NCBI GenBank assembly: GCA_963662795.1
Contig: OY759746.1
Span: forward strand, 3,712,001-3,776,000
Origin: Spirochaetia bacterium
GTDB lineage: Bacteria; Spirochaetota; Spirochaetia; CADAEX01
DNA: 64,000 bases
Reading direction: 5' to 3'
The position numbers and the translations under genes were made by a program. Numbering within the stretch: position 1 is the first letter of the stretch; each line of letters opens with the position of its first letter. Of this stretch, positions 37,066 to 53,620 are shown in pieces. The notes below the pieces were generated by a model. It saw only the letters and a program-made list of their open reading frames with translations, was not told the origin of the DNA and did no database searches.

Positions 37066-39132
37066 TTACTCAACTTTGAACTTGTCAATCTCACCTGATA
37101 ATTGAATAAGATTATTTCGTGTGTCCTGGGTTATTTTGTTTACATTCTGCACAGCCGCATTAATCTGTTCTGCTCCCGAAGCCATTTCATCCATGCCATT
37201 CCCCATTTCAACTGTTATATTTGAAAGATTCCCCATTTCCCTGAGAATTTCATTGCTTCCATTAAGCATTTGAGATGACCCGTTCTGAACCTGTACAGTA
37301 ATACTGTTAATCTCTTCCAGCGCCTGAAGGATCTGCACACTGCCTGTACTCTGTTCTTCCATAGCATTATTAATAACCTGTTCCTGATTTTTAACCTTGC
37401 TCAGATTCTCTACTATCTGTGCGAACTGAATCTTTGATTTGTCAGAAAGTTCAGCCGCGGTATTGATCTGGCCTTTTAAATTCTTTAGTACATTTGAAAT
37501 GGTTTTACCATGTACGGAGGAATTTTCCGCAAGCTTTCTTATTTCATCTGCTACAACGGCAAACCCTTTTCCCGAGCTGCCGGCATGTGCCGCCTCTATT
37601 GCGGCATTCATGGCCAGAAGGTTTGTCTGACTTGCTATATTCTGAATAATATTGCTTGCTTCAATCAAAACGTCTGAATCTTTTTCAATAACCTGCATAA
37701 TATCAACAATTGACTGTATACCGGTTTTTCCTGAATCAGATGCCTCGAGTAATTCCTCCATGAAAACAGCGTTTTTAGTTAAAATGCCTGCAACTGACTT
37801 AATATTTGCCACCATCTCCTCGATCGCTGTAGATGACTCTGTTATTGCTGAGGACTGACTGCTGATCAGGGTGTCAAGATTAACAATATGTTTTTCAATT
37901 TCTTTAACAGTTGAATGTGTTTCAGTTACTGATGTGGATTGATTTATTGTCTGATGCTTTAAGCTGGCAATATTTGCGGTAATTTGGTTCATGGAGGAGG
38001 CTGTTTCAGTCATATTTGCAGATAAATCGTTAACTATCTCCATCAAACTTTCAACTGAACCTTTAGTGGTTGAGACCATGCCGGCAAGACTGCCGATTGA
38101 AATATTAAAAATATTTGCCATTTGACCAATTTCATCCTTTGATTTTGAAAGCAGTCTACTGGTCAGGTTTCCTTTCGATATTGTATCCAGGACAGGGATC
38201 ATCTGAACAATCGGTTTTGCAATTGATTTTCCAACCAGCAGTGCAATAATAATTCCGGTAATTAAAAACAGAATTGTCCCAGCAATTACATAATTCCGCA
38301 GAACATAAATTCCGGAGATCAATTCTCTCTTTTCGATTGTTACAGTGAATATCCAATCTGTGCTTTTTACCGGCAGATATCCCGCTACTATATCTTTTTT
38401 GTTAAAATAATATTGGCCCAGCCCTTCCTGTCCCTTTAACATGGTCCGGACCACGTTCGCAAGCGGTTTCAGTTTTTCATCACTTTTTTCCGCTTCCAGC
38501 GGTGAAAACCTGTTCATAACCAGGTCTTTATTCGGGTGGGAAACAACAACACCTGAATTATTTATCATATAGGCGTATCCTGATTTGCCGAATCCCATGG
38601 AATCTGTAATTGTGTTTAAATCACCTGCGTCATTTACTGCAATGAGTATACCTGGAATTGAACTCTGACCCACAACCGGGACTGCAAATATCACAACAGG
38701 CTTTTTTATTTCATTATTAATAATTACATCGGAAAAAGCCCCTTCCCCGGAAAAAGCTTTTTTTACATACTCTCTGTCACCAATATTTTCTGTTTTACGG
38801 CTTAATACATAAGTGACCTGCCCGTCAGGTGTAACAATACCCAGATCAATATAACCTCTGTTTTCAGCCTCTGCTCTCAAAAAATTCATATATATCCCGA
38901 TATCCATGCTTTTTACTTCAGCACTTTTGGATATTTCCTTCAGGATCTGGAGATTTGAATTTATTGAATCAGCAATGAGTCTGCTGCCGACATTTGCCTG
39001 CATCAATAAAGACTGTCTGGCCATATCAGTGATTACTTTTGTTGTATTGATTATTGCAGTTAAGCCCATTCCAATTGAAATAAAGAACACAATCAAAGCA
39101 ATAATTATAGATATCTTTTTAGACAACTTCAT
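37066..39132 (-). CDS. methyl-accepting chemotaxis protein (dCache + HAMP)
   Basis: Two TMs, [62 protein letters not shown]. Confidence 0.96.
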
Positions 39133-39360
39133 TGAACGACCTCCTGATAAAAATAATTCAAGATTAATAGTTATAAAGCTTTATTTAAGCTTTGTATATC
39201 TCCTGAGGTACATATGCGGTTTTAAAATAAAGATTCATTATTGATACAGATTATCATAAAATACTTATTCATGATTATATATCATACACTCATGATTCCA
39301 TCTTTAAACTATAATTATTAATATCTATAATATTTTTACGCTTAAAGGAAAAGTCTCAAC

Positions 39361-40329
39361 ATGCTGCCAAATATGGATTATAAGCTCGACTCATTACTGA
39401 AAGATGAAAGAATATATATAAAACCTTTATTAAGGGCTTCTGTAATTGCAGGATTATTCATCATTCTTTCAATCTCCTATATCTTTATTTCCGGTCAAAT
39501 AGCTTTTCAAAGTGCAGATACTGCTTCTAATCTTCATAAATATGAATCCATAAAAGGTATTATTTATGTATCTTTGGCTGGGCTAATAATATTTCTTATT
39601 TTATTTTTCTCTTTCAAAAAAATTGGAAACTATGCACAGACGATTGTGAATAACAACAAAACTCTTATTCGCAATGAAGGACAAATTCTGGCCGGACTTA
39701 TTGCTTCGTCACTGGCTCATGATATTAATAATTTAAATCAAATAATTCTTGGGAATATTTCCCTGATTTCAGAAAGTTCATCATACCTGTTTAATAAAGA
39801 GATTAATGAAATCAATAATGCTTCAAACAAACTGACTCATTTAACAAAAAACCTTTCCAGTGTTGCCGGGAACATTAATAGTGATTTCCGCGAAAAAGTT
39901 AATATCGTCCAATTAATTCACGATGTAATAACATTATCCAAAAAATACAAAAACGTAAATAAATGTACCGTTATTTATGATTTGCATGAAAATATTATCG
40001 TATCATTAAATTCTCATCTCTTCAGCCGTGTAGTACTGAACCTGATTATTAATGCCGCAGATTCAATTGAAACGAATGGTGTAATCGTTATAAAGCTTTC
40101 AAAAATAAAAAATGAGATAATATTTGAAATTAGCGATAATGGCTGTGGTATTCCGGCTAATCAGCAAAAGAAAATATTTGAACCTTTTTATACATCAAAA
40201 CAGTATGGGACTGGACTCGGTCTGGTATCGGTTAAAGTTTTTGTACAGGAACACAAGGGAGAGATTACTGTCAGTAAATCGGAGCTTGGAGGAACCTGTT
40301 TTACAATAAAAATACCAGCATCAGATTAA
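39361..40329 (+). CDS. membrane sensor histidine kinase (orphan)
   Basis: H-box LAHDINN, N-box NLIINA, DNGCGI, IFEPFYTSK, GTGLGL. Confidence 0.92.
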   Translation: MLPNMDYKLDSLLKDERIYIKPLLRASVIAGLFIILSISYIFISGQIAFQSADTASNLHKYESIKGIIYVSLAGLIIFLILFFSFKKIGNYAQTIVNNNKTLIRNEGQILAGLIASSLAHDINNLNQIILGNISLISESSSYLFNKEINEINNASNKLTHLTKNLSSVAGNINSDFREKVNIVQLIHDVITLSKKYKNVNKCTVIYDLHENIIVSLNSHLFSRVVLNLIINAADSIETNGVIVIKLSKIKNEIIFEISDNGCGIPANQQKKIFEPFYTSKQYGTGLGLVSVKVFVQEHKGEITVSKSELGGTCFTIKIPASD

Positions 40330-40582
40330 GTGCTGCAAAGATGGCGGCGTGATACACTTTAAACATCATGAAAATATGTGTTGACAAAAGGGCGCAGTTT
40401 AATTACCCGCTTCATAGCTGACTATAACTGCAACTTCCCTGCTTTTACTGTCCCTTTCAATGCAGTTTACTCTTCAGGGAATCAGCTATCCCAAAAAGAT
40501 TTTAATAAAAGTTTTCTAATGTCTCACTCATAGAGTGATTATAGCATATTTACCTGTTTTCCACCAAATAGCCGGAAGCACC
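40330..40582 (-). mobile_element. ISL3-family left-end remnant with decayed transposase N-terminus
   Basis: Minus strand begins GGTGCTTCCGGCTATTTGGTGG (ISL3-like IR), TGCTATAAT, ATG 40531: MSETLENFY*NLFGIAD/P*RVNCIERDSKSREVAVIVSY...PFC...QHL, resembling ISL3 Tpase FYQQLLGL..PW.V..VE.D...EV.V.V. Confidence 0.7.
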
Positions 40583-40601
40583 TATTTTTATTGTTTAAAT
40601 A

Positions 40602-40629
40602 TTCAGCTCCGGTATTAATCGGAGCTGAA
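40602..40629 (-). terminator. stem-loop immediately after the TRAP fused permease
   Basis: TTCAGCTCCG-8 nt-CGGAGCTGAA. Confidence 0.7.
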
Positions 40630-40634
40630 AGAAA

Positions 40635-42836
40635 TTATGATAAATATTTTGTATCCTCATATTTTTTTAACTGCTGGGATTGGTTAAAGTTTTTGGGATT
40701 TTTTTTGTATATCCATTGCATTGCAAAAACAAATAGAATAATTATTATACCAATCCAATCGGAAAACACACCAGGCTTTATGGAAAGGGCAGCCCCGGCA
40801 CAAATTAAAAATCTTTCAACCATAAACATTTTACGTTTAATATAACCTGCCATTCCAATAGCAAAACTAAGCGCACCGAACGAAGCCGTTAATATTACAA
40901 CGAATACCTTCAATGTGAAAGTCTGAGTACCGATAAGCAACGATGTATTATAAACAAAGATAAAGGGAACTATATACGCAACTGATGCAAGCCTCACAGC
41001 ATTAAAAGCTGTTGGCCAAAAATCTGCACCTGCAATTGCGGATGCCGCATATGATGTAATCGCTACCGGAGGAGTGAGTTCTGACATAATACCAAAATAG
41101 AAACAGAAAAGATGGGCTGCTATAGGCTCAACCCCTACTTTTACCATAATAGGAACAGTCATTATTGTCATTAAAATATAGTTAGCTGTTGTAGGAACAC
41201 CCATTCCAAGAACAATGCAAAGAAGCATTGTCAGAACCAGTGTCAACAACAGGTTGTTTTGTGCAATACCCGTAAGAAGGGAGGTAACAGCGGGAGTTAA
41301 ACCTGTAAGACTTGCAGTGCCGACAACAAAGCCTGCAGCCGCACATGGTATAGCTACTACCGTAAGAGTTTGCCCTGCCTGATCCAGGATATTTAGAAAT
41401 TTCTTAATATTAAGCCGAGTATTTTTATTTAACATACTCAAGACAATTGCCGCCACAAAAGCATAAAAAGGTGCAGCAAGAGCCGAGTATCCTCTTATCA
41501 GCATGCCAACGAGAATAATTACCGGTATAAAAAGATAACTTTTTTTCAAAGCTTCCATTTTCCATCCAACAGGTATTTCCGATTTGGGAAGGCCTACTGC
41601 TCCAATCTTACATGATTCAAAATGTATCATCGTAAATACACTTATGTAGTAAAGAGCAGCCGGAAGTATAGCTGCAACAACTATTTTAAGATAGCTTACA
41701 CCCAGAAACTCTGCCATAATAAAAGCAGCAGAACCCATAACTGGTGGCGTAACCTGACCACCAAGTGATGCCGCAGCTTCTGTCGCACCGGCCAGAGCAG
41801 GAGGAATACCTGTCCTTTTCATAAGTGGGATTGTTATAATCCCGGTTGTAGCAACATTGGAAGTAGAAGAACCGCTGAGCATAGCAAACATACTGCTTGC
41901 AACAACTGCCATTTTTGCGGGGCCTCCAACCATAGTCCCGAACCCCCCTTTAGCCATTTTGAGTAGAAGTTCTGCTAGTCCTGTGGCATGAAGAGCTGCT
42001 CCAAAAAGAAGAAACATGGCGATATATGTTGAAGAAACTCCGATCGGGGTAGACCACAAACCAATATCAAGAAGATAAAAATGTCTTATAATCATCGAAA
42101 TATTAAATCCGGGATGATAAAAAACACCGCCTACGAGAAAACCGAATTTACAGTAAATAAATAAAAATATTCCAATTGACATCAGAACCCTGCCGATGGA
42201 ACGTCTTGTTGCTTCAAGTACACAAAGTATTGTCCAAACACCGAAAATCTGGTCAGGCAGGGTAACAATCCCAGCCCTCATCACAATTGTGTCAGTGTAA
42301 ATAGCGATATACCAGCATCCGATAATACTTATAAAAATAAAAACAAAGTCATACCAGTATAGCCTATGTTCAATATCTTCATTATGGCTCTTTCTTTTTT
42401 TCTTGGTGAAATGTCTTGCTGCAACAAGCCCTGCAGTTATTAAAATAAAATAAGATAAATGCAGCATCAATGTTGCAGTTATTTTATTTACATAGAAAAA
42501 AAGAAAAATAGACATATTCAATCCAACCCCAATAAAAAAATAGGGGCCCCAAGGTTCCTTGTTTGATCCGCTGTTTCTATTGGCGGAAAATTTCAGAAAA
42601 CAGATCAAAAGAGCAAAACAGAGATGAACACTTCTCTGTCTCATCGCTGTGTACATACCGAACATAGCTGTATATAAATGAAATAAGCCAAACATTATTG
42701 CTATCACACTAATGGTTAAAAGCCATTTTTTGTCCAGGGTCCTGTATCCTGTAATTTGTTTTTCAAGCTTATCAGATGTTTTCTGAATTACTTCCATCTC
42801 CTGCTCTACAGTTAAAGGATCAAGTTTATCGCTCAT
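40635..42836 (-). CDS. TRAP fused permease (4TM/12TM, TAXI-associated)
   Basis: VLEATRR, FLLFGA.L, GGPAKMAVVASS, NVATTG..TIPLMKR, PPVMGSAAFIMAE, LGMGVPTTANY, LTPPVA; ATG 42836 after GGAGG. Confidence 0.95.
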   Translation of the reverse strand: MSDKLDPLTVEQEMEVIQKTSDKLEKQITGYRTLDKKWLLTISVIAIMFGLFHLYTAMFGMYTAMRQRSVHLCFALLICFLKFSANRNSGSNKEPWGPYFFIGVGLNMSIFLFFYVNKITATLMLHLSYFILITAGLVAARHFTKKKRKSHNEDIEHRLYWYDFVFIFISIIGCWYIAIYTDTIVMRAGIVTLPDQIFGVWTILCVLEATRRSIGRVLMSIGIFLFIYCKFGFLVGGVFYHPGFNISMIIRHFYLLDIGLWSTPIGVSSTYIAMFLLFGAALHATGLAELLLKMAKGGFGTMVGGPAKMAVVASSMFAMLSGSSTSNVATTGIITIPLMKRTGIPPALAGATEAAASLGGQVTPPVMGSAAFIMAEFLGVSYLKIVVAAILPAALYYISVFTMIHFESCKIGAVGLPKSEIPVGWKMEALKKSYLFIPVIILVGMLIRGYSALAAPFYAFVAAIVLSMLNKNTRLNIKKFLNILDQAGQTLTVVAIPCAAAGFVVGTASLTGLTPAVTSLLTGIAQNNLLLTLVLTMLLCIVLGMGVPTTANYILMTIMTVPIMVKVGVEPIAAHLFCFYFGIMSELTPPVAITSYAASAIAGADFWPTAFNAVRLASVAYIVPFIFVYNTSLLIGTQTFTLKVFVVILTASFGALSFAIGMAGYIKRKMFMVERFLICAGAALSIKPGVFSDWIGIIIILFVFAMQWIYKKNPKNFNQSQQLKKYEDTKYLS

Positions 42837-42877
42837 TAGAGCCTCCATTCTTTATTAAAAAAATATAAAAAATTATT

Positions 42878-42909
42878 AAAAAGGACTGCTCTTCAGGAAC
42901 AGCCCTTTA
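42878..42909 (-). terminator. internal terminator-like hairpin between racemase and permease
   Basis: Minus strand AAAGGGCTGTTC-CTGAA-GAGCAGTCCTTT-TT. Confidence 0.65.
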
Positions 42910-42928
42910 AATCATAAAGAGATAATAT

Positions 42929-43654
42929 TTAACAATCCAGAGGGTATTCTTTTCTTATGATTGCTGCATGAACCATCTGAGTCAAGGTCAAAATGTCAAA
43001 GACAGGTTTGTTGATAAGCTTCTGAATATCTCTGGCAAAAGGCGGGAGGTCAGTACATTCAATAAGCAATGCTCCAATATCCGAATTTTCCTCATAAAGT
43101 TTTCCTACCTCAAATAAAACCTTTTCTCTAAGAAGATCAATATTTAAATCTGTTCTGGTTCTGTCGATAATGACACTCCGGAATTCTTCATGCTGCATCA
43201 TACCAGCAACACAGTGAGGAATGTTTTTAGCATTTACAATTTCAAGATAATCCGGGGTAAAACTTTTTTTATCCGCGACAAGAATCCCCAGTTTCTTTCC
43301 ACCAATCATTTGCGAAATAAGTGGAATCTGCATGATACTTGAAATATACACAGGAACATTAACTTCTGCCGCAATTTTGTTCTGAAGCAGAGCCATAAAC
43401 CCACAGCTTCCTGTTATAGCTTTAACACCCATCGCTTCAAGTTCTTTTGCGCCTTCAATAAACTTGGGCAGAAGATTTGCGCATTTATCTCGAACAACAA
43501 TATCAGGTGTCGCTCCTTCCAATACTTTAAATACAACAGGAAAATCATAAGAATGATGATTTTTTATATGGCCTGGTACTTTGTAGTAATAGGACTCAAG
43601 AACCAAGATACCAATTTCTGCCCCATAACAATTAGGTCCACCTTTTAAGATCAT
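42929..43654 (-). CDS. Asp/Glu/hydantoin racemase superfamily protein
   Basis: GG.N.YG.EIGILVLE, catalytic Cys pair ITGSCGF and IECTDLPP, PVFDI. Confidence 0.85.
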   Translation of the reverse strand: MILKGGPNCYGAEIGILVLESYYYKVPGHIKNHHSYDFPVVFKVLEGATPDIVVRDKCANLLPKFIEGAKELEAMGVKAITGSCGFMALLQNKIAAEVNVPVYISSIMQIPLISQMIGGKKLGILVADKKSFTPDYLEIVNAKNIPHCVAGMMQHEEFRSVIIDRTRTDLNIDLLREKVLFEVGKLYEENSDIGALLIECTDLPPFARDIQKLINKPVFDILTLTQMVHAAIIRKEYPLDC

Positions 43655-43670
43655 ATTTAACTCCAGATAA

Positions 43671-44654
43671 TTATTTAATTATTCCTTTTTCTTTATAATA
43701 CTTTACTGCACCCGGGTGTAAAGGAATATTCCCCATCATATTGGTAGCTGTTTCCAGACTGATTTTCTTTGCCTGATCGTGAACTGCCCGAACCTCTTCG
43801 ATCCCTTTAAACATTCCATCTAGAAAATCATAAACAACCTTGTCCGGGACGGATGAAATTGCGCAGATTGTACTTCCTGTTGTAAATACTTCAACATCTT
43901 CGTCCATTCCATTATATGTTCCTGCAGGTATTGTACCAAATCCGTACCAAGGGAATTTTTTACTGAATTCAATTTTATCTTTAACAGGATCTTTAAACCC
44001 AAGCAGGTTGATAGGCCTTGAAGAAGCAAGTTCAATTATTCCACTGGCCGGCCATGCAGTAGCATATCCTGCAACATCAAGGTGCCTGTCTTTCATTGCA
44101 GCAACCCTTTCAGTATGCGAGAGGGGTCTCCAGTCAACATCTTTTGTTGTAAGCCCGTAAAAAGAAAGTATTTCCTCATACTGTATAAGGTCGCCTGAAC
44201 CAGGAGATCCAGGTGCTATAGCTTTCCCTTTAAGATCTGCAAAAGTCTTAATCCCGCTATCTTTCCATGAGACTGCCTGAAGAGCTGTTGGGAAAAGGTT
44301 GCAAACAAATCTTACATCCTTCCAAGGTTCTTCACCTTTGAAATATTGAGTTCCGCTCCAGGCATATTCATTTATAGCTGTATTGATCATCCCAAATTGA
44401 TATTCTTTTTGTTTCATTAACCGGATATTTTCTGTTGATCCACCTGAGGCCTGAACTGTGATTTTAGAATCAGTGTACTTGGACACCTGTGTAACAATTG
44501 TAGCAGCAACCGGATACCAGCTACCGGTCATTCCTGAAGTCCCCATTACAATTCCTTTGGAATCTGTTGTTTCTACTTTTTCAGCATTGCCTGTCGCGAA
44601 AACAATATTGCCAAGCAAACAAAAACTGATAAGCACCATTAAAATTTTTTTCAT
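43671..44654 (-). CDS. TAXI-family TRAP substrate-binding protein
   Basis: GTSGMTGSWYP, SGGSTENI, DLKGK.I.PG.PGSG, IPAGTY.G, PLHPGAVKYYKE. Confidence 0.95.
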   Translation of the reverse strand: MKKILMVLISFCLLGNIVFATGNAEKVETTDSKGIVMGTSGMTGSWYPVAATIVTQVSKYTDSKITVQASGGSTENIRLMKQKEYQFGMINTAINEYAWSGTQYFKGEEPWKDVRFVCNLFPTALQAVSWKDSGIKTFADLKGKAIAPGSPGSGDLIQYEEILSFYGLTTKDVDWRPLSHTERVAAMKDRHLDVAGYATAWPASGIIELASSRPINLLGFKDPVKDKIEFSKKFPWYGFGTIPAGTYNGMDEDVEVFTTGSTICAISSVPDKVVYDFLDGMFKGIEEVRAVHDQAKKISLETATNMMGNIPLHPGAVKYYKEKGIIK

Positions 44655-44692
44655 CTTGTTTCTCCTTTTCTCTTTTTTATTAAAAAAAGACG

Positions 44693-45694
44693 TTATACAA
44701 CATCTTTTTCAGTATCCATAAGGTTAAGCAGTTTTCCAATATTTTTCTCCTCAGCCATTTTAAATAATTCTTTGCATAGTGCGACATCGTGAAGACCAAG
44801 TCCGAAGTTGTGATCAAGTATGGTTTCATGATCATTCACACGTCCAGGTTTCATACCTGCGACTATCTCTCCGAGCTGAGCATAGGGTCCTGCAGGAAGT
44901 TTTGAATAATATCCTTCATTTTCAACATTTGTTTCATAAAACTGTCTCCAGTCATCAACAATAAATTTATCCGCGACAAACGGAAAATCTTTTGTCCATC
45001 CGCTTGTGTGAACCGGCATTACAAGAGCACCTTTTTTAACCCACGCCCTGTCAAAAACAGGTTTAGTTATTTTTCCGGTGCAGGTTATAATTATATCAGA
45101 ATCCCTGATTGCAGCTTCTGCTGTCGACTCAACTGTAATCTCAAGACTGCTTCTATCATTTACATAAGTTTTGAAAGTTTTTATCATATTTACATCAATA
45201 TCAAAAACTTTTACTTTTTCCAGAGTAGGAATAATCTTTTTCATATTTGCAGCATGTATTCTTCCCTGAATTCCAGTTCCGATAATCGTAAAAGTTTTAG
45301 CGTTCCCGGGAGCCAGCCATTTTGCCGCAACCGCAGATACAGCTGCTGTTCTTATTCCTGTAGTCCAGGCACAGTCGAGAATCGCCAATGGAAAACCAGT
45401 GGAATCATCATTGATAATATTGACTCCGGTAATTCCCGGAAGTCCCTTTGCCGCATTGGCCGAAAATCCACTTACCCATTTAATACCGGCAGCCTTAAAC
45501 CTTGGTAAATAAGCAGGCATGGCATGAAAAAAAGATTTTGAATCAGGATGTATAGCTGGTTTTTTTGGATTTACAAAATAACCGTTAGCGTGTTCCACAA
45601 GAACTTTTTCGATTATACTTACCACAAAGTCAAATTCTAGATTCATCGAAATGATATCTTCATGTGAAACGTATCTAAGTTGAATAATGCTCAT
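44693..45694 (-). CDS. ornithine cyclodeaminase/mu-crystallin family enzyme (SbnB/AlaDH-like)
   Basis: HAMPAYL, GIKWVSGF..N...GLP, T..RTAAVS, GTGIQG, LGEIVAG.KPGR, GLGLHDVA. Confidence 0.92.
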   Translation of the reverse strand: MSIIQLRYVSHEDIISMNLEFDFVVSIIEKVLVEHANGYFVNPKKPAIHPDSKSFFHAMPAYLPRFKAAGIKWVSGFSANAAKGLPGITGVNIINDDSTGFPLAILDCAWTTGIRTAAVSAVAAKWLAPGNAKTFTIIGTGIQGRIHAANMKKIIPTLEKVKVFDIDVNMIKTFKTYVNDRSSLEITVESTAEAAIRDSDIIITCTGKITKPVFDRAWVKKGALVMPVHTSGWTKDFPFVADKFIVDDWRQFYETNVENEGYYSKLPAGPYAQLGEIVAGMKPGRVNDHETILDHNFGLGLHDVALCKELFKMAEEKNIGKLLNLMDTEKDVV

Positions 45695-46036
45695 TGTTTT
45701 CCTCTTTTTTTAGACTTAAGACAGTTAATCACTCGGATGGAGATACTGCAAATTTTTTTTGAAAAAAGATAATTTATATCTATTTTTTAAATCAAATACA
45801 TATACTTCTTAAATGATAATAGTTTTTTTTACATGCGATGAAGCTGAGAGGCTGGTGATTATAAATGTTTTTAATTAATCCTGGCACTGTATCTTGTCTA
45901 CCGTTCAATAGTGAGTAACCAAACTGATTTTAGTGAGGAAACCCTTTCAGGTAAATGTTCGGGGTATATCGATTATATTTTCCAGGTTACAGAAAGTTTT
46001 AAGAACTAAATCCCCATAATGAAAAAATACACTTCT

Positions 46037-47473
46037 TTATACAAGCAAAAAGGATTTGCCATCCCTTTTGCGAAGGTCTTCAGGTTTTAATCCAAGTTCT
46101 CTTTCGAGAATAGCCATCACTTGCGGTCCGCAGAAACCGCCCTGGCAGCGGCCAAGGCCCGGCCGGCATCTCCGTTTTACAGCATCCATTGTCCTTGCAC
46201 CTAAAGGCCGGTGGATAGCCTGTATGATTTCAGCCTCGGTAATTGTTTCACAACGGCAGATAATGTGGCCATAATGGGAATTCTGCTTAATAAGACAGCT
46301 TTTCTCATCTAAAGACGCTTCCTTGAAACTTACAATTCTTCTACGCTTGCGTATATAACCATTCCGCCGTTCCAGCACCAGGCCAGCATCCTGCATATAC
46401 TGCATAACATATTTGGCAATAGAAAGACTGCCTGTAAGACCGGAAGAACGGATTCCGGAAATACCGACATAGCCGGGTACTTTTCGGGAAACAAGGATAT
46501 TATACCCCTCAGGATCACGGGCAGGACGCAACCCGGTAAACTGTGTTATTGTATCTTCGATATGAAGATCAGGCACCATTTGTTTGGCCGTAGCTATCAG
46601 TTCCTGAAAACCGTCAAATGTTGTTTTTTTATCATCCTTGTCTTGAAGATCTTCCGCAGTAGCGCCCAGAAGTATATTACCTTCCGAAGTTGGAACAACA
46701 TTTGCACCCCGCAGTGTCGGAGAGGGGACAAGTCCTATGATATGTTTGACTTTCACACTGGTTTCCCTGTCCAGCAAAATAAAATGACCTTTCCTGGGAT
46801 AAATCTTAAAATCGCATTCTCCCACCATCTTTGCAATTTCATCACAATAAAGCCCAGCTGAGTTAATAACCCATTTGGCTTTAAATTCTCCTTTTGTTGT
46901 AATAACTTTCTCCATTACTCCATTATTGACTTCGATATCCAGAACTTTACAATCGAGAAAAAATTCAACACCGTTTTCAGCCGCATTTTCCGCCTGGGCA
47001 ATTATATACTCAAAAACATTAACATGCGATGTACGGGCGTCATATATACCTGCTAATACTGCGGGATTAATATTTGGTTCCATTTCGAGAATTTCTTCGC
47101 GGGTTACTGGCTCGAGATCCTGAACATTATTGTCGAAACCCTTTTTAAGCATTAAAGGAATTCTCTCTTTCTGTTCCTCATTGATTGCTATTATTAACAT
47201 GCCGCAATGGTTTATTGGTATATCAAGATCTTCGCAAAGCTTGTATGACATCGGCTTTGCAGCTGGAGCAATTTTCCCTTCCAGTGTAAAAGGCGGTACT
47301 GAATATTCTGTGCTTATAAGACCTGTACAGGACTTTGAAGCATCACCGCCTATATCATCTTTCTTGTCAATAACGATGACTTTTAGTTTATATTTGGAAA
47401 ATTCACGAGCCAGGGCAATCCCTACCGCTCCAGCACCGATTATTAATATATCTGAATTATACACGATAATCAT
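46037..47473 (-). CDS. FAD-dependent oxidoreductase, GlpA/L2HGDH-like, with C-terminal BFD [2Fe-2S] domain
   Basis: IIGAGAVG, VINSAGLY.DEIA, PRKG, GN.L.G.TAED, GLRP, ICRCE.ITEAEI, RCQGGFC. Confidence 0.9.
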   Translation of the reverse strand: MIIVYNSDILIIGAGAVGIALAREFSKYKLKVIVIDKKDDIGGDASKSCTGLISTEYSVPPFTLEGKIAPAAKPMSYKLCEDLDIPINHCGMLIIAINEEQKERIPLMLKKGFDNNVQDLEPVTREEILEMEPNINPAVLAGIYDARTSHVNVFEYIIAQAENAAENGVEFFLDCKVLDIEVNNGVMEKVITTKGEFKAKWVINSAGLYCDEIAKMVGECDFKIYPRKGHFILLDRETSVKVKHIIGLVPSPTLRGANVVPTSEGNILLGATAEDLQDKDDKKTTFDGFQELIATAKQMVPDLHIEDTITQFTGLRPARDPEGYNILVSRKVPGYVGISGIRSSGLTGSLSIAKYVMQYMQDAGLVLERRNGYIRKRRRIVSFKEASLDEKSCLIKQNSHYGHIICRCETITEAEIIQAIHRPLGARTMDAVKRRCRPGLGRCQGGFCGPQVMAILERELGLKPEDLRKRDGKSFLLV

Positions 47474-47838
47474 TTCTCCTTATTGATAGACATACAGGTA
47501 ACTATATCTATACCTGTGCCAAGAATGTCTGAAATTATTACCTGATTTATTTTCACCGGGGCTTCTATGGAAATCTTTTTGATTGCTTTCATACACTCAA
47601 AAATAATTTCTTTCGGAATCGGTTTTGTAGACCTCACTGGCATCATTCTTCTTCCATACGCTGCAAGAAGCTTTACTGAAGATGTAAGAATTCTGCAGGG
47701 ATTGATAAACTCACGTTTTGAGTATTCATACCCTCTTTTGCAGAGGTTATTGTTTATCTTGATAATTCCCGTCCCTTCTTCTTCAACCTTTATTCTGCAT
47801 CCTCGGGGACAAATAATACAGATTATCTCTTTTACCAT
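47470..47838 (-). CDS. DUF1667 CxxC Fe-S/Zn-binding small subunit
   Basis: ICIICPRGC, LCKRG..Y...E...P.R.LTSSV, PVRST.PIPK, APV. Confidence 0.9.
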   Translation of the reverse strand: MVKEIICIICPRGCRIKVEEEGTGIIKINNNLCKRGYEYSKREFINPCRILTSSVKLLAAYGRRMMPVRSTKPIPKEIIFECMKAIKKISIEAPVKINQVIISDILGTGIDIVTCMSINKEK

Positions 47839-49091
47839 TATGCAATCTCCCTTACACTGACTTTTATAGGTGTAGCAAGTCTGGAAATATCGTTTTTATT
47901 AATCAATATAGATTCAATTTCGCCGGGATTTACAGCAACAGCTTTGTGTTTGTAAATACAGCTCCCATCTGCTTCTGCTATTATCTCTGTATCTTTCATT
48001 GGAGAAAGCACTCTAAAAAAAAGCTTTACATCCTCCTCTTTATCAACAACAATTTTCTTAGGGCAGACATATCTGACATTATTTCCAGTGTTAACTTCAA
48101 CGACTCTGCCTTCCTGAAGTTTTCCTTTTGCAAATAACGCGGCATGCATACCTGCGTTTTCACTTTCTCGGGAAACGTTATCAACGAGATCATTCACGTG
48201 AAGCACATTTCCGCAGGCAAATATTGAATCAACATTTGTCTGCATATACTGATTAACCTCAGCACCCCTTGTAATTTCCGACAGCTTGATACCTACTGTT
48301 TTTGAGAGTTCATTTTCCGGAATAAGCCCTACCGAAAGCAGAAGCGTATCGCATTCAATGTCAAATTTTTTAACCATTATCGGCTTGCAGTCAGTATCAA
48401 CCGGAGCGACAGTTACGCTTGTAATCCTGTCTATTCCTGTAATATCGATTATTGTATGTGACAGCATTAAAGGAATATTAAAATCGTTTAGACACTGAAC
48501 CAGGTTTCTCGTCAGCCCTGCGAGGTAAGGAAGTATTTCCACAACTGCTTTTACAGTTCCACCCTCTAGGGTAAGACGTCTTGCCATAATCATTCCGATA
48601 TCGCCTGAACCAAGTATGACAATATTTTTACCTACCATATCACCGTAAATATTCAAAAGCTTTTGTGCTGTCCCGGCAGTGTAGATACCTGCCGGGCGCA
48701 TACCCGGTATCATTAAGTTAGCCCGTGTTCTTTCGCGGCATCCCATAGCCAGAACATAAGCCCCAGCCATAATATTAATCATCCCTTTTTTCCCTACACA
48801 ATAAAGATTATTACCCCTGAATTCGAGTGCCATTGTTTCGGATAAAAATTCTATTTTCAGTTTTACTGTCTGATCTATAAAGCGTTGCATATATTCAGGC
48901 CCTGTCAATTCACGGTTAAAATAACTGAGACCGAACCCTGGATGAATACATTGCTGAAGGATCCCCCCCATATGGCTGTCTCTTTCTATGATAACTACTT
49001 TTTTTGCTCCTGTTTTTTTCGCGGAAACTGCCGCGGACAGACCTGCAGGTCCAGCACCAATTACTGCAACATCACAAACCAGCTCTTCCAT
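47838..49091 (-). CDS. NAD(P)/FAD-dependent oxidoreductase (partner subunit of GlpA-like complex)
   Basis: GAGPAGL, GGILQQCIH.GFGL..F.RELTGPEY, MGCRERTR, GSGDIGMIMARR, CGNVLHVNDLVD.V; ATG 49091 after CAGGAG. Confidence 0.9.
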   Translation of the reverse strand: MEELVCDVAVIGAGPAGLSAAVSAKKTGAKKVVIIERDSHMGGILQQCIHPGFGLSYFNRELTGPEYMQRFIDQTVKLKIEFLSETMALEFRGNNLYCVGKKGMINIMAGAYVLAMGCRERTRANLMIPGMRPAGIYTAGTAQKLLNIYGDMVGKNIVILGSGDIGMIMARRLTLEGGTVKAVVEILPYLAGLTRNLVQCLNDFNIPLMLSHTIIDITGIDRITSVTVAPVDTDCKPIMVKKFDIECDTLLLSVGLIPENELSKTVGIKLSEITRGAEVNQYMQTNVDSIFACGNVLHVNDLVDNVSRESENAGMHAALFAKGKLQEGRVVEVNTGNNVRYVCPKKIVVDKEEDVKLFFRVLSPMKDTEIIAEADGSCIYKHKAVAVNPGEIESILINKNDISRLATPIKVSVREIA

Positions 49092-49126
49092 ATAAAACAC
49101 TCCTGCAAAAAATCAAACGTAACTTT

Positions 49127-49194
49127 TAGATAAATAAACTGTCTGTTTATTTATCTACTAATCAAACACAGCGGATAAAACTTCTGAAGTTTTA
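49127..49194. repeat. two inverted repeats in the oxidoreductase leader
   Basis: TAGATAAATAAAC-5 nt-GTTTATTTATCTA (49127-49157) and TAAAACTTC-T-GAAGTTTTA (49176-49194). Confidence 0.75.
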
Positions 49195-49325
49195 CGCCTA
49201 TGTATACACTTCCGTATTATCAGGCTATTACTTGTAAATTATCCTTTATAATGAAGAGGTAATCAATTATTACTGATTATTTTACGTGATTGATTAATAT
49301 TGTTTATGAGAATCATTTACAATAT

Positions 49326-50960
49326 TTAAATTGACCTCGCATCAAACTCTCTTTTCTGCTGATCAACTGCAAGCTTCATACCTGTGGGAGTGGTTGTCGT
49401 ACCAATACCTTTGCAGCCGCAAATAATCTTCCCTACCTTGAGAAGAGCATCGCACATTTCTCCAAATGGAATTACAGCGTCAAAACCTGCCACAACCGTG
49501 TTGGCGCTTACTACAGCAGTAGCTGTGGCGCTCATGTTTCTTGCAATACACGGAACCTGAACCAGCCCGGCAACAGGATCACACACAAGCCCCAGGAGAC
49601 TTTGAAGAGAAAGTGAGGCAGCATCGCAGGACTGCTTGACCGTACCGCCCATCATTTGAACTAAAGCCCCGGATGCCATCGCGGCTGCACTACCTATTTC
49701 AGCCTGGCAGCCGAATTCCCCACCGGAAAAACTGTTGTCTTTTGCCATGCAGACACCTATTACTCCGGCGGACAGAAGTGCTTTGACAACCTCTTTTCTT
49801 TCAGAGCAGAAATACTCACCAGTACTGTAAATTACAGCCGGAACTATCCCTGCCGAACCTCCTGTCGGTATACAGACAATAAGGCCGGCGGCATTGCTGT
49901 ATTCCATAACAGCCAGAGAAACCGGAACCGCGATATCAAGGATTCCCATGGGAACAGTTTTTGGTTTTTCTGAATTTTCCGTAAACCGACTAAGCATCTT
50001 TCCCGCTTTCGGAGTTACAATACCATTTATTTCAAAACACCCTTCTTTTCCTTTAATAATTGATTTATTAATTATTTCCCATAAATGATCTGCATAATCA
50101 AAAATCTCACTGCTCGTCCATCCGGTTACCGCTGATTCATACATTACCGCCGCTTCCCACAACGAATAGTTATTTTCTTCAATATATTTCATCATTTCAT
50201 CATAGGAAGAAAAAGGAAGTTCTGTGTTATTGCGGTATACTGCCGGATAAACAGGGCCCAGGCAGGAGATATTCCCCGATCCGGTAATATTCTTCAATTC
50301 TTCCAGAAAATCCGGTTGAAACGGTAAATTGCTTTTTATCCCCAAAAGTGAAACTTTGCCGCTACCTTTCGTAAAATATAATTCGACCTTTGTTGTAATT
50401 TTTTTCTTCAAGGTATCAGCAATATTACGCAATTCTTTTTCTGTTTTTCTGCTGAAAAAAACTAGAATCTCATGGCAATCCCCACGCAATTCAAGAGAGC
50501 AGTCATCGATTTCAAGTAGCACAACTGTACCTCCGCCTGTCGAATCAGCAATAATATGATGAATATTATTTCCCTCTTTGTCTGCGATCAGAATATTCAT
50601 CCCCTTCATGGTTCCTGTGCCTTGCCAGCTTTCAGTATCAAAAGAAAACTTAATTCCTTCATCTTCAGCATTTTTATAGGCACTGAAAAAATCAGGCACT
50701 TCGCAGGGTTTTCCCAGTAGCCCGTTTATAAATGCCAAATCGCTTTTCATACCCAGAAAGGTTCTTTTGAAGCTTGTTGAAGCAGCAAGCTTAATGTCAA
50801 ATTTTAATGGATATGAAGATTTTTCAACCTGACTCAAAAGCTGTCTTAAAAGAGACCCTATGCGAAAAGGGGCCGCCGTATTTGAACTCGAAGGGCCGAT
50901 TGCAACAGGACCAAGGACATGATTAAAAATTGAAGGATTTGTTTTCATTTTATTCTCCAT
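49326..50960 (-). CDS. Fe-S L-serine dehydratase-like enzyme, fused beta-(ACT-like)-alpha
   Basis: SIFN.VLGP..IGPSSSNTA, STGGG, PTGGSAG, GCQAEIG, LGLVCDPVAGLVQVPCI.RN (three Fe-S Cys). Confidence 0.88.
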   Translation of the reverse strand: MENKMKTNPSIFNHVLGPVAIGPSSSNTAAPFRIGSLLRQLLSQVEKSSYPLKFDIKLAASTSFKRTFLGMKSDLAFINGLLGKPCEVPDFFSAYKNAEDEGIKFSFDTESWQGTGTMKGMNILIADKEGNNIHHIIADSTGGGTVVLLEIDDCSLELRGDCHEILVFFSRKTEKELRNIADTLKKKITTKVELYFTKGSGKVSLLGIKSNLPFQPDFLEELKNITGSGNISCLGPVYPAVYRNNTELPFSSYDEMMKYIEENNYSLWEAAVMYESAVTGWTSSEIFDYADHLWEIINKSIIKGKEGCFEINGIVTPKAGKMLSRFTENSEKPKTVPMGILDIAVPVSLAVMEYSNAAGLIVCIPTGGSAGIVPAVIYSTGEYFCSERKEVVKALLSAGVIGVCMAKDNSFSGGEFGCQAEIGSAAAMASGALVQMMGGTVKQSCDAASLSLQSLLGLVCDPVAGLVQVPCIARNMSATATAVVSANTVVAGFDAVIPFGEMCDALLKVGKIICGCKGIGTTTTPTGMKLAVDQQKREFDARSI

Positions 50961-50987
50961 AAGGCAGGAAACTCAGGATTAATACTG

Positions 50988-51917
50988 TTACCGGGTAATC
51001 CCCATTTCTTTTATTGCTTTTTTATTGTAATCACCGCACCACTCTTCAATCTCATCAAAAACCTGCCTCAAAGATGAGGAAATATACTTTTCCTTGTGAT
51101 AAATAAGATAGTAATGACGATATAACCCGCCTTTAATCGGAATAATTCTGGGGTTTCTGTTTGTAACATAACTTTCTGCGACATGCCTTGATAAAATCGA
51201 TATTCCCAGATTGTTCTTTATAAGCTCTATAATCGGTTTAATTAAATCAATCTCTTCAATTATGTTAAACTTTATATTGTGCATCTCCGTGTATTCATTA
51301 ATAACAATTCTCGATGTTCCTGATATCTCATGCATAATCATATTCTGATTTTCAAAATCCAGTGGATTTATTACAGCTTTCCCGGAAAGCGGATGGTCAG
51401 GATGGCATATTACGCACAGAGAATCTCTGATAAGAGGTTTTACGACAAGTTTTGAATTTTTAACTTTGAGGGCAACAACACCAAAATCTGTTTCCATGTT
51501 TTCTACTTTTTTAATGATTTCACTGCTTTTTGCCGACATAAGCTGGATAAAAATATTGGGATATTTCCGGTTGATATTCAACAGTATCTTATCAAAATAA
51601 TATTCTGAGAAGGGAAAAGTCGCGAATACACTGACATTTTCGCTGAATGCATTTTGATTGTCTGAAATAATATCTTCAATCTCTTTCTTTAAGGAAAAAA
51701 GCTGTTCACATTTAGGATAAACAGCTTTTCCCGCTTGAGTAAGAAATATTTTTTTCCCAATAATCTCAAAAAACTGTATTCCGCATTTTTCATGAAAATC
51801 TTTAATCTGAAGGCTTACTGCAGCCTGTGATATATTGAGTTCTTTTGCGGCTTTGGTAATTGAATTAAACTTTGAAATATTATAGAAAATATGCAAATGA
51901 TGCAGGTTTAAGTTCAT
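50988..51917 (-). CDS. LysR family regulator
   Basis: SITKAAKELNISQAAVSLQIK, LTQAGK, NLGISILS, R.YYLIYHKEKY. Confidence 0.95.
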   Translation of the reverse strand: MNLNLHHLHIFYNISKFNSITKAAKELNISQAAVSLQIKDFHEKCGIQFFEIIGKKIFLTQAGKAVYPKCEQLFSLKKEIEDIISDNQNAFSENVSVFATFPFSEYYFDKILLNINRKYPNIFIQLMSAKSSEIIKKVENMETDFGVVALKVKNSKLVVKPLIRDSLCVICHPDHPLSGKAVINPLDFENQNMIMHEISGTSRIVINEYTEMHNIKFNIIEEIDLIKPIIELIKNNLGISILSRHVAESYVTNRNPRIIPIKGGLYRHYYLIYHKEKYISSSLRQVFDEIEEWCGDYNKKAIKEMGITR

Positions 51918-51919
51918 AA

Positions 51920-52864
51920 TCAGTCTTTTTTATTTTGATACCCAAAATTTACTGTATAATAATCTTTCTTGAACTTTTCACTCCATTTTTCAAACTGATC
52001 AATAACTTGTTTCATGGAGGGTGATAAGTATTTTTTCCGGTGATAGATAAGATAAAAATAACGACAAAGCCCTCCATGAATTGGAATTGCCTTGATGCTT
52101 CCGTTATCAATATATTCTTTAGCCATATATCTGGATAGAATTGATATTCCGACATTATCTTTTACAAGTTCCAGCACCGGTCTTATCATGTCAATTTCTC
52201 CAATAACATTCAACCTTATATTATTTTGTTTTACATAATCATTGATCAATACTCTTGTAGTTGAACCTTCCTCGTGAAGGATCACGTTGTGTTTTTCAAA
52301 ATCATGTGAATGAATAATCACCTTGTCAGCCAGTTCATGATCAGGAGAACACATTAATGAAAGAGAATCCATCAGAAGGGTTTTTGCAATCAAATTCGAA
52401 TGTCTGGGATCTTTTCCAACAATTCCCATATCTGTTTCAAGATTTGCCACTTTTTTAATTATTTCGTCTGATTTAGCTGTAAGAAGTGAGATATAGATAG
52501 CTGGAAACTGCTTATTGATATTCATAAATATTTTGCTAAAATAATATTCTGTTACAGGCGATGTGGCATGGATATTGATTACTTCATTATAAGCTTGTTT
52601 GTTGCCAATTATCAGCTCCTCAACATCCTTAATTTGTAAAAACAGCTTTTCACACTGAAAATACAACGTTTTTCCGAAAGGTGTAAGATATATTTGTTTA
52701 CCGATAATTTCGACAACCCTGACACCGCATGATTTCTGGAAGTTTTTTAATTGAAGACTTACTGCAGATTGACTGATATTAAGCGCATTTGCAGCTTTTG
52801 TTATTGATAGATGTTTGCCAATATAGTAGAAAAGTTTCAAATGATGAATATTAATGTCCAACAT
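51920..52864 (-). CDS. LysR family regulator (close paralog of neighbour)
   Basis: SITKAANALNISQSAVSLQLK, LTPFGK, NVGISILS, RYFYLIYHRKKY. Confidence 0.95.
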   Translation of the reverse strand: MLDINIHHLKLFYYIGKHLSITKAANALNISQSAVSLQLKNFQKSCGVRVVEIIGKQIYLTPFGKTLYFQCEKLFLQIKDVEELIIGNKQAYNEVINIHATSPVTEYYFSKIFMNINKQFPAIYISLLTAKSDEIIKKVANLETDMGIVGKDPRHSNLIAKTLLMDSLSLMCSPDHELADKVIIHSHDFEKHNVILHEEGSTTRVLINDYVKQNNIRLNVIGEIDMIRPVLELVKDNVGISILSRYMAKEYIDNGSIKAIPIHGGLCRYFYLIYHRKKYLSPSMKQVIDQFEKWSEKFKKDYYTVNFGYQNKKD

Positions 52865-53069
52865 CTATTTCCTCCATAATAAAATGAATATAATAATTGA
52901 TAACTTTTTATGATAATCAAGAATATAATTTTTTATATTTTTATAGATAAATGAAATAAAGTTTTAAATACTTAGGATATCATACAAAGATAATTACTTC
53001 AAACACTTCCTTGATATGAATTTTAAAATACTATACGTATTCCGGACTGTAATGATTGACACCTAATTT

Positions 53070-53496
53070 CATACGTTTAATTAAAACTGTGTAAATGCAG
53101 TATTCTAAATAGTCTTAAAAAGGCAAAAGATAAAGACTGTGCAGTATTATGATGAATAAAGAACGTTTAGAAGAATTGGACGCAGAGCTGAGAAAAGGGG
53201 TCAAGAGTGAATCAGATTTGGCAAACCCTTTAGGGTCGCTGATAAAATTAGCAATTGAGAAAGCACTTAATGCTGAATTAGATAACCATTTAGGTTATGA
53301 AAAGCATTCAAGCCAGGGCCGTAACAAACTGAAGAGCCGTAATGGCCGTACAGGCAAAAAAGTAATAACTGATTCCGGAGAACTTGAAATAGGAACACCA
53401 CGGAATCGGGATCGTGACTTTGAACCGCAAATCATTCACAAAGATCAGCGCAGATTTTTTTCTACCATTATTTCTAGCAGCTATAATTTATTATGA
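53070..53496 (+). mobile_element. IS256-family remnant (left end + truncated transposase 53149-53496)
   Basis: IR-like ...AAAACTGTGTAAAT; ALNAELDNHLGYEK, SRNG...K.V.T..GE.EI.TPR.RD..FEPQII; similarity stops after KDQRRF, no DDE domain. Confidence 0.85.
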
Positions 53497-53549: not shown

Positions 53550-53620
53550 AGCGAGCGAAGGGAATCGAACCCTCGGCACAAGCTTGGGAAGCTTGGGTAT
53601 TACCATTATACGACGCTCGC
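53550..53620 (-). tRNA. tRNA-Gly(CCC), CCA not encoded
   Basis: GCGAGCG-TC-GTAT/ATAC-CAAGC-TTCCCAA-GCTTG-GAGGG-TTCGATT-CCCTT-CGCTCGC-T cloverleaf. Confidence 0.97.

Follow-up and report, generated by a model that had tools for sequence, protein, structure and literature searches.

A conserved spirochaetal gene module, tentatively assigned to catabolism of an N-substituted amino acid, with an apparently separate FngABC-type cassette in its midst

Do ten genes lined up on one strand of a spirochaetal genome serve a single pathway? A stretch of 64,000 nucleotides from a member of the Spirochaetia (contig OY759746.1; here called the window) raises this question at positions 40635-52864, where a sequence-only reading had proposed one catabolic system for a modified amino acid. 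Open reading frames (ORFs) and NCBIfam/Pfam profile searches, by which families were assigned, bore out its ten co-oriented minus-strand genes and their order: two LysR regulators, an SDH_beta+SDH_alpha fusion, Pyr_redox_2, DUF1667, DAO+Fer2_BFD, OCD_Mu_crystall, TAXI and PRK07475 proteins, and a fused TRAP permease. The proposal of a single system stood in part. The LysR, lyase, OCD-family, racemase-like (PRK07475), TAXI and TRAP genes occur together elsewhere and make up a core module of six gene types, while the FAD/Fe-S trio does not accompany them and looks like a separate FngABC cassette inserted from elsewhere. We regard the core as a real, uncharacterised pathway module that builds on known chemistry (epimerisation, C-N oxidation and beta-elimination) and holds an unrelated-looking FngABC insert.

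The ten-gene arrangement is real and retained within the lineage. One contig from a sequencing run, possibly the source of the assembly, matches 39000-53179 with zero differences. In a second strain a single contig spans 40346-53099 with 112 differences, and a ~91%-identical piece from a third study crosses the gap between the FngB and lyase genes; these two sequences show that the arrangement is not an assembly artefact. Spacing divides the genes into three blocks: lysR-lysR-lyase (gaps of 2 and 27 bp), the overlapping FngB-FngC-FngA genes, and ocd-taxi-PRK07475-trap (38, 16 and 80 bp). The blocks are separated by 225 bp between lyase and FngB and by 342 bp between FngA and OCD. Among the differences listed for the second strain, the best-supported ones cluster in both LysR genes (51564-52213).

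Evidence for the core comes from its co-occurrence in other genomes. A lyase orthologue (54-61% identity) was found in 10 of 19 genomes of the family, and orthologues of PRK07475 (54-84%) and of the OCD-family enzyme (55-72%) in eight each. Both sets of eight are nested within the lyase-positive ten, and none of the nine lyase-negative genomes has either gene; PRK07475 is rare (11 of 401 Spirochaetota genomes). An all-species scan returned 54 lyase loci, 12 of which have a lyase at least 50% identical to ours (L084, an end fragment, was left out); these core loci come from ten spirochaetes, one Syntrophobacter and one Desulfobacteraceae contig. When neighbouring genes were scored by tblastn, PRK07475 and OCD were each detected in nine core loci, with the misses near contig ends, and FngA next to the core in 0 of the 12. 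Gene order varies among these loci. Related spirochaetes thus keep the core, as do Desulfobacterota except for TAXI/TRAP, so the neighbourhood check suggested by the sequence-only reading linked the core subfamilies across phyla but did not recover the ten-gene set outside the lineage. In the literature searched, mostly outside subscription journals, no publication on this gene combination was found. The core LysR (51920..52864) shares ~50% of its residues with the single LysR that genus g2 loci carry and 50% with its tandem paralogue (50988..51917), and the TAXI solute-binding protein (43671..44654) and the fused TRAP permease (40635..42848) pass the TIGR02122 and TIGR02123 cut-offs, respectively. 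Core loci of two phyla (L037:6650-7795 and L023:8651-9805) also encode an uncharacterised saccharopine-dehydrogenase-like protein of 380 aa with no sequence match in PDB.

A promoter-like element (45748..45815, minus strand) precedes the transporter/OCD operon and is conserved in seven of nine relatives. It combines a T-N11-A dyad of LysR type, a spacer of 40-44 nt, an A/T tract and a -35-like TTG, and may serve as the operon's regulated promoter; it lies 121 nt before the OCD start here and 119 nt in three g2 genomes. The pattern matched 5 of 5000 shuffled sequences, a rate that overstates the element because the pattern was drawn after looking at these regions, and it has 16 matches genome-wide. 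No conserved promoter element was found before fngB or lysR, and a generic promoter/terminator scan stayed at chance level (58 versus 50.2 +/- 6.8).

What could the enzymes of the core do? The fused lyase (49326..50960) joins beta and alpha parts of a [4Fe-4S] serine dehydratase through an ACT-like insert. Its predicted structure (predicted local distance difference test score, pLDDT, 88.5) best matches L-serine dehydratase 4RQO (template modelling (TM) score 0.67), then the L-cysteine desulfidase CyuA (PDB 9FYI, TM 0.43-0.45), a likeness of fold alone. The dehydratase fold, the Ser-Ser-Ser motif (Ser24-26) and the three cluster cysteines (Cys418, Cys460 and Cys471) are kept. The substitutions in family-conserved motifs that had been noticed earlier are real: SSSN stands in place of SSSH, and Asn27 and Met71 occupy the positions of His19 and His61 in 4RQO, which is numbered here with an 18-residue tag offset deduced from chain length. 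In the accessible part of PMC12647591, His61 is described as the essential base of the solved dehydratase, and CyuA, of related fold, as breaking C-S bonds with other residues at that site. None of 120 homologues has His at position 71. The protein also scores below the NCBIfam equivalog cut-offs (195.8 versus 243.2 for the alpha, 70.3 versus 161.2 for the beta and 181.5 versus 345.1 for the mono model). Canonical SdaAB is encoded elsewhere in the genome, and its SdaB keeps both His. Because both conserved histidines, including the proposed base, are lost and a normal SdaAB is present, the lyase is probably not an L-serine dehydratase, in agreement with the earlier view that this is no ordinary SdaAB. 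Judged by sequence, it is a conserved, re-tooled subfamily.

In a quick tree of lyases, distant members adjoin alanine-dehydrogenase-like, opine-dehydrogenase-like or OCD genes, PRK07475, RidA, AcnX, glycine-reductase-type genes, or HypD/ProC. One clade of His-less fused lyases (L065-L068, L072, L073, L075, L076 and L078) is consistently accompanied by alanine-dehydrogenase-like genes, one or two per locus; NhaC-type transporters and sigma-54 regulators are often present as well, and glycine-reductase and selenium genes are sometimes near. Another locus (L031:7414-17439, genome G008) brings together HypD, its activase and ProC with a fused serine-dehydratase-like gene (Gln at the His61 position) and OCD-family and ProR-family genes; it is a candidate for an anaerobic 3-hydroxyproline route.

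The PRK07475 protein (42929..43654), an enzyme of the Asp/Glu racemase fold, passes its profile cut-off (246.6 bits versus 231) and has both catalytic cysteines, Cys84 and Cys200. According to the accessible part of PMC10349084, no bacterial subfamily is closer than PRK07475 to Alma1, an algal dimethylsulfoniopropionate (DMSP) lyase, and the bacterial members of PRK07475 are reported without DMSP lyase activity. At the Alma1 motifs D/NCGF and ECTE/Q our protein has the inexact counterparts SCGF and ECTD. The fold search gave only distant racemases and decarboxylases (at most 20% identity) and does not discriminate between functions.

A FastTree phylogeny of the PRK07475 copies gathered, from which short search loci were left out, placed the protein in a clade of 20 (support 0.90) that spans Spirochaetia, Desulfobacterota and Rhodobacterales. 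The 19 other loci amount to about four independent lineages, eleven of these loci having been found through the lyase and the plasmid loci having been chosen from best matches. A C-N oxidoreductase lies within 7 kb in 16 of the 19 (OCD in seven, DadA-like in six, opine-oxidase-like in three), and the three loci without one are at contig ends. TAXI or Tct is present in 17. A beta-lyase accompanies 13: the Fe-S lyase in nine, a CuyA/D-cysteine-desulfhydrase-like protein in one and a cysteine-desulfurase-like protein in three. The CuyA-like locus also carries TSUP, of the sulfite-exporter family, and RidA; cystathionine gamma-lyase stands within 7 kb in one of the cysteine-desulfurase-like loci and in the annotated region of two. 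Within the subclade, then, the lyase partner is optional, and C-S lyases dependent on pyridoxal phosphate (PLP) take the place of the Fe-S lyase in some loci. The label opine-oxidase-like is ours and follows domain architecture; the only NCBIfam matches, to ThiO and SoxA, were weak. Flavin oxidoreductases of the DadA and opine-oxidase kind normally work oxidatively. The sulfur lead and the link to Alma1 go beyond what the sequence-only reading had contained.

The genome has a second PRK07475 gene (L015:4611-10010, or C1:778610-784010), directly behind an octopine-dehydrogenase-family gene and together with GntR and DctPQM, an arrangement conserved in genus g4 (L188 and L189). In several anaerobes (L236, L257, L263, L265 and L266) PRK07475 stands directly before EutD-like and often EutB-like genes, which suggests that there it is a non-orthologous stand-in for EutA. 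In L264, AcnX, opine-dehydrogenase and two-Cys-racemase genes occur side by side in one locus.

All 13 named-family matches of the OCD-family enzyme (44693..45694), a putative imine oxidoreductase, including SbnB, archaeal alanine dehydrogenase, EutC, BhcD, LhpI and OCD, remained below the NCBIfam cut-off; SbnB was the best, at 187.6 against 326.9. No core enzyme, then, scores above the cut-off for any family whose reaction is assigned. PDB matches of the TAXI protein held no usable ligand clue. In the same genome, at L018:6031-13861 and L020, its closest TAXI/TRAP paralogues (two tandem permeases, 59-61% identity) lie beside a PhnW-type aminotransferase gene, and another (49%) lies in a phosphonate-type cluster.

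The trio between lyase and OCD appears to have a different history. FngABC, as set out in the accessible part of its description (Schut, Poole, Adams 2026, PMC13689815), is the fifth electron-bifurcating enzyme family, a ferredoxin- and NAD-dependent bifurcating glycerol-3-phosphate (G3P) oxidoreductase made of a DAO+[2Fe-2S] subunit, an NAD/FAD subunit with a QCIH motif and a DUF1667 subunit. Our three genes belong to this family: FngB (47838..49100; QCIH at 50-53), FngC (47470..47838; CxxCxxxC at 7-14) and FngA (46037..47473; DAO + BFD [2Fe-2S]) are adjacent and overlapping, with the Cys motifs kept in FngC and FngA. They share with the described systems the three subunits and the presence of multiple copies per genome (Table S1 of PMC13689815 holds 71 FngABC from Spirochaetia), but differ in the gene order B-C-A, the absence of a kinase, the loss of the active-site His in FngA and the position inside an amino-acid operon. 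The searchable part of that paper's supplement text does not contain serine-dehydratase terms. The earlier remark that the cluster lacks a glycerol kinase proved correct, and no other glycerol gene was found within it (GlpK of this genome sits at C1:190965), but glycerol genes are missing nearby in 32% of FngABC members (PMC13689815, as accessible).

The altered motif of the FAD enzyme is equally real, with Ser54 at the position of the active-site His (NSxxxH). This His is catalytic in G3P oxidases. It is present in 76 of 83 FngA copies from fetched loci and is replaced by Ser or Ala in 106 of 106 proteins of the subclade to which our FngA belongs (P0122-P0227). The substrate of the trio is probably not G3P. 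The genome has five further FngA-like genes, one of which keeps the His and adjoins a GlpP antiterminator; elsewhere in it (L016:6799-11345) an FngABC with a second FngA-like gene lies inside a transketolase/alcohol-dehydrogenase cluster.

The closest FngA relatives with visible context (61, 51, 46 and 44% identity) adjoin FGGY kinases, and one at 55% is on a contig too short to show neighbours. Lyase, PRK07475, OCD and TAXI genes were found in none of 81 other FngA loci, many of which are short. In the 19 family genomes the best FngA is at most 46% identical, the two 46% matches being in genomes without the core, and core-bearing genomes have no FngA above 39%. When metagenomes were scanned with an alignment of the FngA subclade, the patterns were generic and so was most of the FngA recovered; many contigs were short, only five close contexts came out, and the scan served as a control. 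A 47% "FngA" beside the PRK07475 gene in L267 turned out to be only the [2Fe-2S] fragment of an opine-oxidase-like complex. Neither a transposase nor a repeat was seen to mark the trio's edges, and GC% and GC% at third codon positions gave no clean split between modules.

Some gut Clostridia (L049, L053, L060 and L061; partly L043, L052 and L232) combine FngABC and DctPQM with a His-less fused lyase, two-subunit AcnX, RidA, an EutH-like transporter, an FGGY kinase and DeoR. This cluster, possibly for polyhydroxy amino acid catabolism, is a better candidate than the window for a pathway that joins lyase and FngABC.

We tentatively favour a reading with two modules, in which the core catabolises an anionic N-substituted amino acid, most likely either an N-(carboxyalkyl) compound of opine type or a cyclic diacid of thiazane/thiazolidine type, with a cysteine- or serine-like half, and FngABC is separate. 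The substrate would be imported by TAXI/TRAP, and one alpha-carbon would be inverted by PRK07475 with its two cysteines. The OCD-family enzyme would then oxidise the C-N bond with NAD+, and hydrolysis of the imine would give a 2-oxo acid and a beta-substituted alanine. From the latter the Fe-S lyase would eliminate the beta group, for which sulfur is likelier than hydroxyl, to yield pyruvate and ammonia; in other hosts housekeeping enzymes could clear the freed amino acid instead. FngABC, as a bifurcating polyol- or sugar-acid-phosphate oxidoreductase cassette, would have come in without its kinase and settled between the OCD promoter and the lyase gene. Gene content, co-occurrence, residue changes and the promoter-like element are observed; the class of substrate, the reactions and their order we infer. 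Since the carboxylate transporter and a C-N oxidoreductase (of three unrelated families) are constant and the lyase is optional or interchangeable, import, epimerisation and oxidative C-N cleavage are put first; since the lyase is exchanged for C-S lyases and has lost the serine-type base, a cysteine-type half is preferred. Opine catabolism offers a precedent: it uses opine oxidases or dehydrogenases, and an SbnB-type OCD-family enzyme cleaves an N-carboxyalkyl amino acid. The parallel lies in the C-N oxidation of an N-substituted amino acid proposed for OCD, which opine-oxidase-like flavoproteins replace in three loci; import here is by TAXI/Tct instead of an ATP-binding cassette system, and we know of no opine route with a PRK07475 epimerase or an Fe-S lyase. 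Between the opine-type and beta-hydroxy-type substrates that had been proposed together, the data thus lean towards the former.

Several observations weigh against this reading. The count of Fe-S lyases in the PRK07475 subclade is inflated, the spirochaete and two Desulfobacterota loci having been found through the lyase, and the sulfur lead rests on four Rhodobacterales loci picked from the best plasmid matches. The CuyA-like, desulfurase-like and DadA-like partners are so labelled below NCBIfam cut-offs. No sulfur-handling genes were found in the anaerobic core loci, nor, by tblastn, a CuyA-like gene in this genome. Beta-hydroxy chemistry is favoured both by distant fused lyases that accompany 3-hydroxyproline-type genes (HypD, ProR family, AcnX) and by the other PRK07475 genes that adjoin EutD/EutB. 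A PhnW-type aminotransferase gene directly follows OCD in three of the 12 core loci, and five clostridial loci among the 54 lyase loci join a related lyase with FngABC.

The beta-hydroxy observations bear most on the main rival, a route like EutABC, in which PRK07475 would epimerise a beta-hydroxy, N-substituted or cyclic amino acid, the Fe-S enzyme would dehydrate it and OCD would reduce an imine as an electron sink, with the trio again separate. We think this rather unlikely, although the logic of three chemistries is that proposed for hydroxyectoine-to-ectoine conversion in the accessible part of PMC5924519, where a two-Cys racemase-fold enzyme, a beta-eliminating enzyme and an OCD-family enzyme are likewise combined with TRAP import. 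The L236 PRK07475 gene does occupy an EutA-like position before EutD-, EutB- and OCD-like genes, and imine reductases (alanine-dehydrogenase-like, opine-dehydrogenase-like, OCD) accompany distant fused lyases, some of which also stand beside HypD/ProC or beside AcnX and a ProR-family gene. But the ectoine- and hydroxyproline-linked PRK07475 copies fall outside our subclade, and in it the lyase is missing from six of 19 loci and the oxidoreductase is near-constant and often of the flavin oxidase type. Here, moreover, the lyase is an Fe-S rather than a PLP enzyme, PRK07475 stands for EutA and LysR for EnuR, OCD falls far under the EutC cut-off, the cluster has no EutB PLP dehydratase, and the genome has no match to EutD, HypD, the ProR family, AcnX or GrdB/E. 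If instead all ten genes worked together, the His-less FngABC would have been recruited as an anaerobic bifurcating oxidoreductase coupled to ferredoxin. It would act either on the substrate itself or on something of polyol type that the lyase produces, for example a leaving group that is already phosphorylated and so requires no kinase. The arrangement kept in the second strain and bridged in the ~91%-identical relative, trio edges free of transposases, possible read-through from the lysR-lyase promoter, the missing G3P-type His, the frequent pairing of DAO-family flavoenzymes with the PRK07475 subclade and the independent clostridial lyase clade with FngABC all speak for it. We nevertheless consider it unlikely: the core loci and core-bearing family genomes do without a comparable trio, loss of the His is common to the whole FngA subclade, whose relatives with context are kinase-linked, the redox role is already filled by OCD, and the clostridial FngA is just 32-35% identical to ours, keeps the His in four of four aligned copies and in most loci has its own kinase, AcnX and RidA. 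A related idea, that a glycerophosphoserine lyase frees G3P without a kinase, was downgraded because FngA lacks the G3P-type His and the core's relatives lack the trio.

The kinship with Alma1 allows a retro-Michael reaction, in which PRK07475 would split an adduct, S- or N-(2-carboxyethyl) or succinyl, and so release cysteine or a different thiol or amine. The Fe-S enzyme would then be a cysteine desulfidase, and OCD would recycle pyruvate and ammonia. C-S lyases are indeed the partner lyases in aerobes, and SCGF and ECTD can be counted as matching the Alma1 motifs if these are read loosely; with a near-constant C-N oxidoreductase that such a route would not need, bacterial homologues inactive on DMSP (PMC10349084, as accessible) and fold matches that fail to discriminate, we find it very unlikely. 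There is a slim chance that the core degrades a conjugated aminophosphonate, such as a derivative of phosphonoalanine or an N-substituted 2-aminoethylphosphonate, whose product goes to PhnW. The three loci with PhnW after OCD, and the TRAP paralogues beside PhnW-type and phosphonatase-like genes, would fit, but those loci are all of one genus, and PhnW is missing from the other nine core loci and from annotated Rhodobacterales loci. Chance assembly of ordinary enzymes (L-serine dehydratase, alanine dehydrogenase, G3P dehydrogenase and amino-acid racemase) seems just as improbable. In structure the best matches were L-serine dehydratase, archaeal alanine dehydrogenase and G3P oxidase, and fused type-3 serine dehydratases do exist; yet all score below curated cut-offs, catalytic His residues have given way to others, the genes stay linked across phyla, and the ordinary functions are provided for elsewhere in the genome by SdaAB, GlpK and the His-keeping FngA.

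The favoured two-module reading gives a handle on three orphan groups: the PRK07475 subfamily, thought to be the source of algal DMSP lyases, the His-less fused Fe-S dehydratases of anaerobes, and the His-less branch of the newest bifurcating family. The PRK07475 subclade also occurs in compact operons of culturable Rhodobacterales, so that the ligand of one binding protein could name a metabolite common to gut or anaerobic and marine bacteria. A bolder combination, which we judge decidedly unlikely, would make the core a route, shared across phyla, for a cysteine-type conjugate not yet recognised, with new C-S lyase chemistry in the His-less Fe-S dehydratase subfamily, a first function for the bacterial sister group of Alma1, and the His-less FngABC recruited as a bifurcating amine or polyol oxidoreductase; if true, this would be the first bifurcating Fng enzyme linked to amino-acid catabolism.

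Features at both ends of the locus lie outside the proposed pathway. After the TRAP gene, a 60-bp element (40343-40402) has four further copies in the genome at 88.5% identity, and contigs end there. On the right flank, an IS256 transposase remnant (53149..53496, plus strand) is followed by a tRNA-Gly gene (53550-53620).

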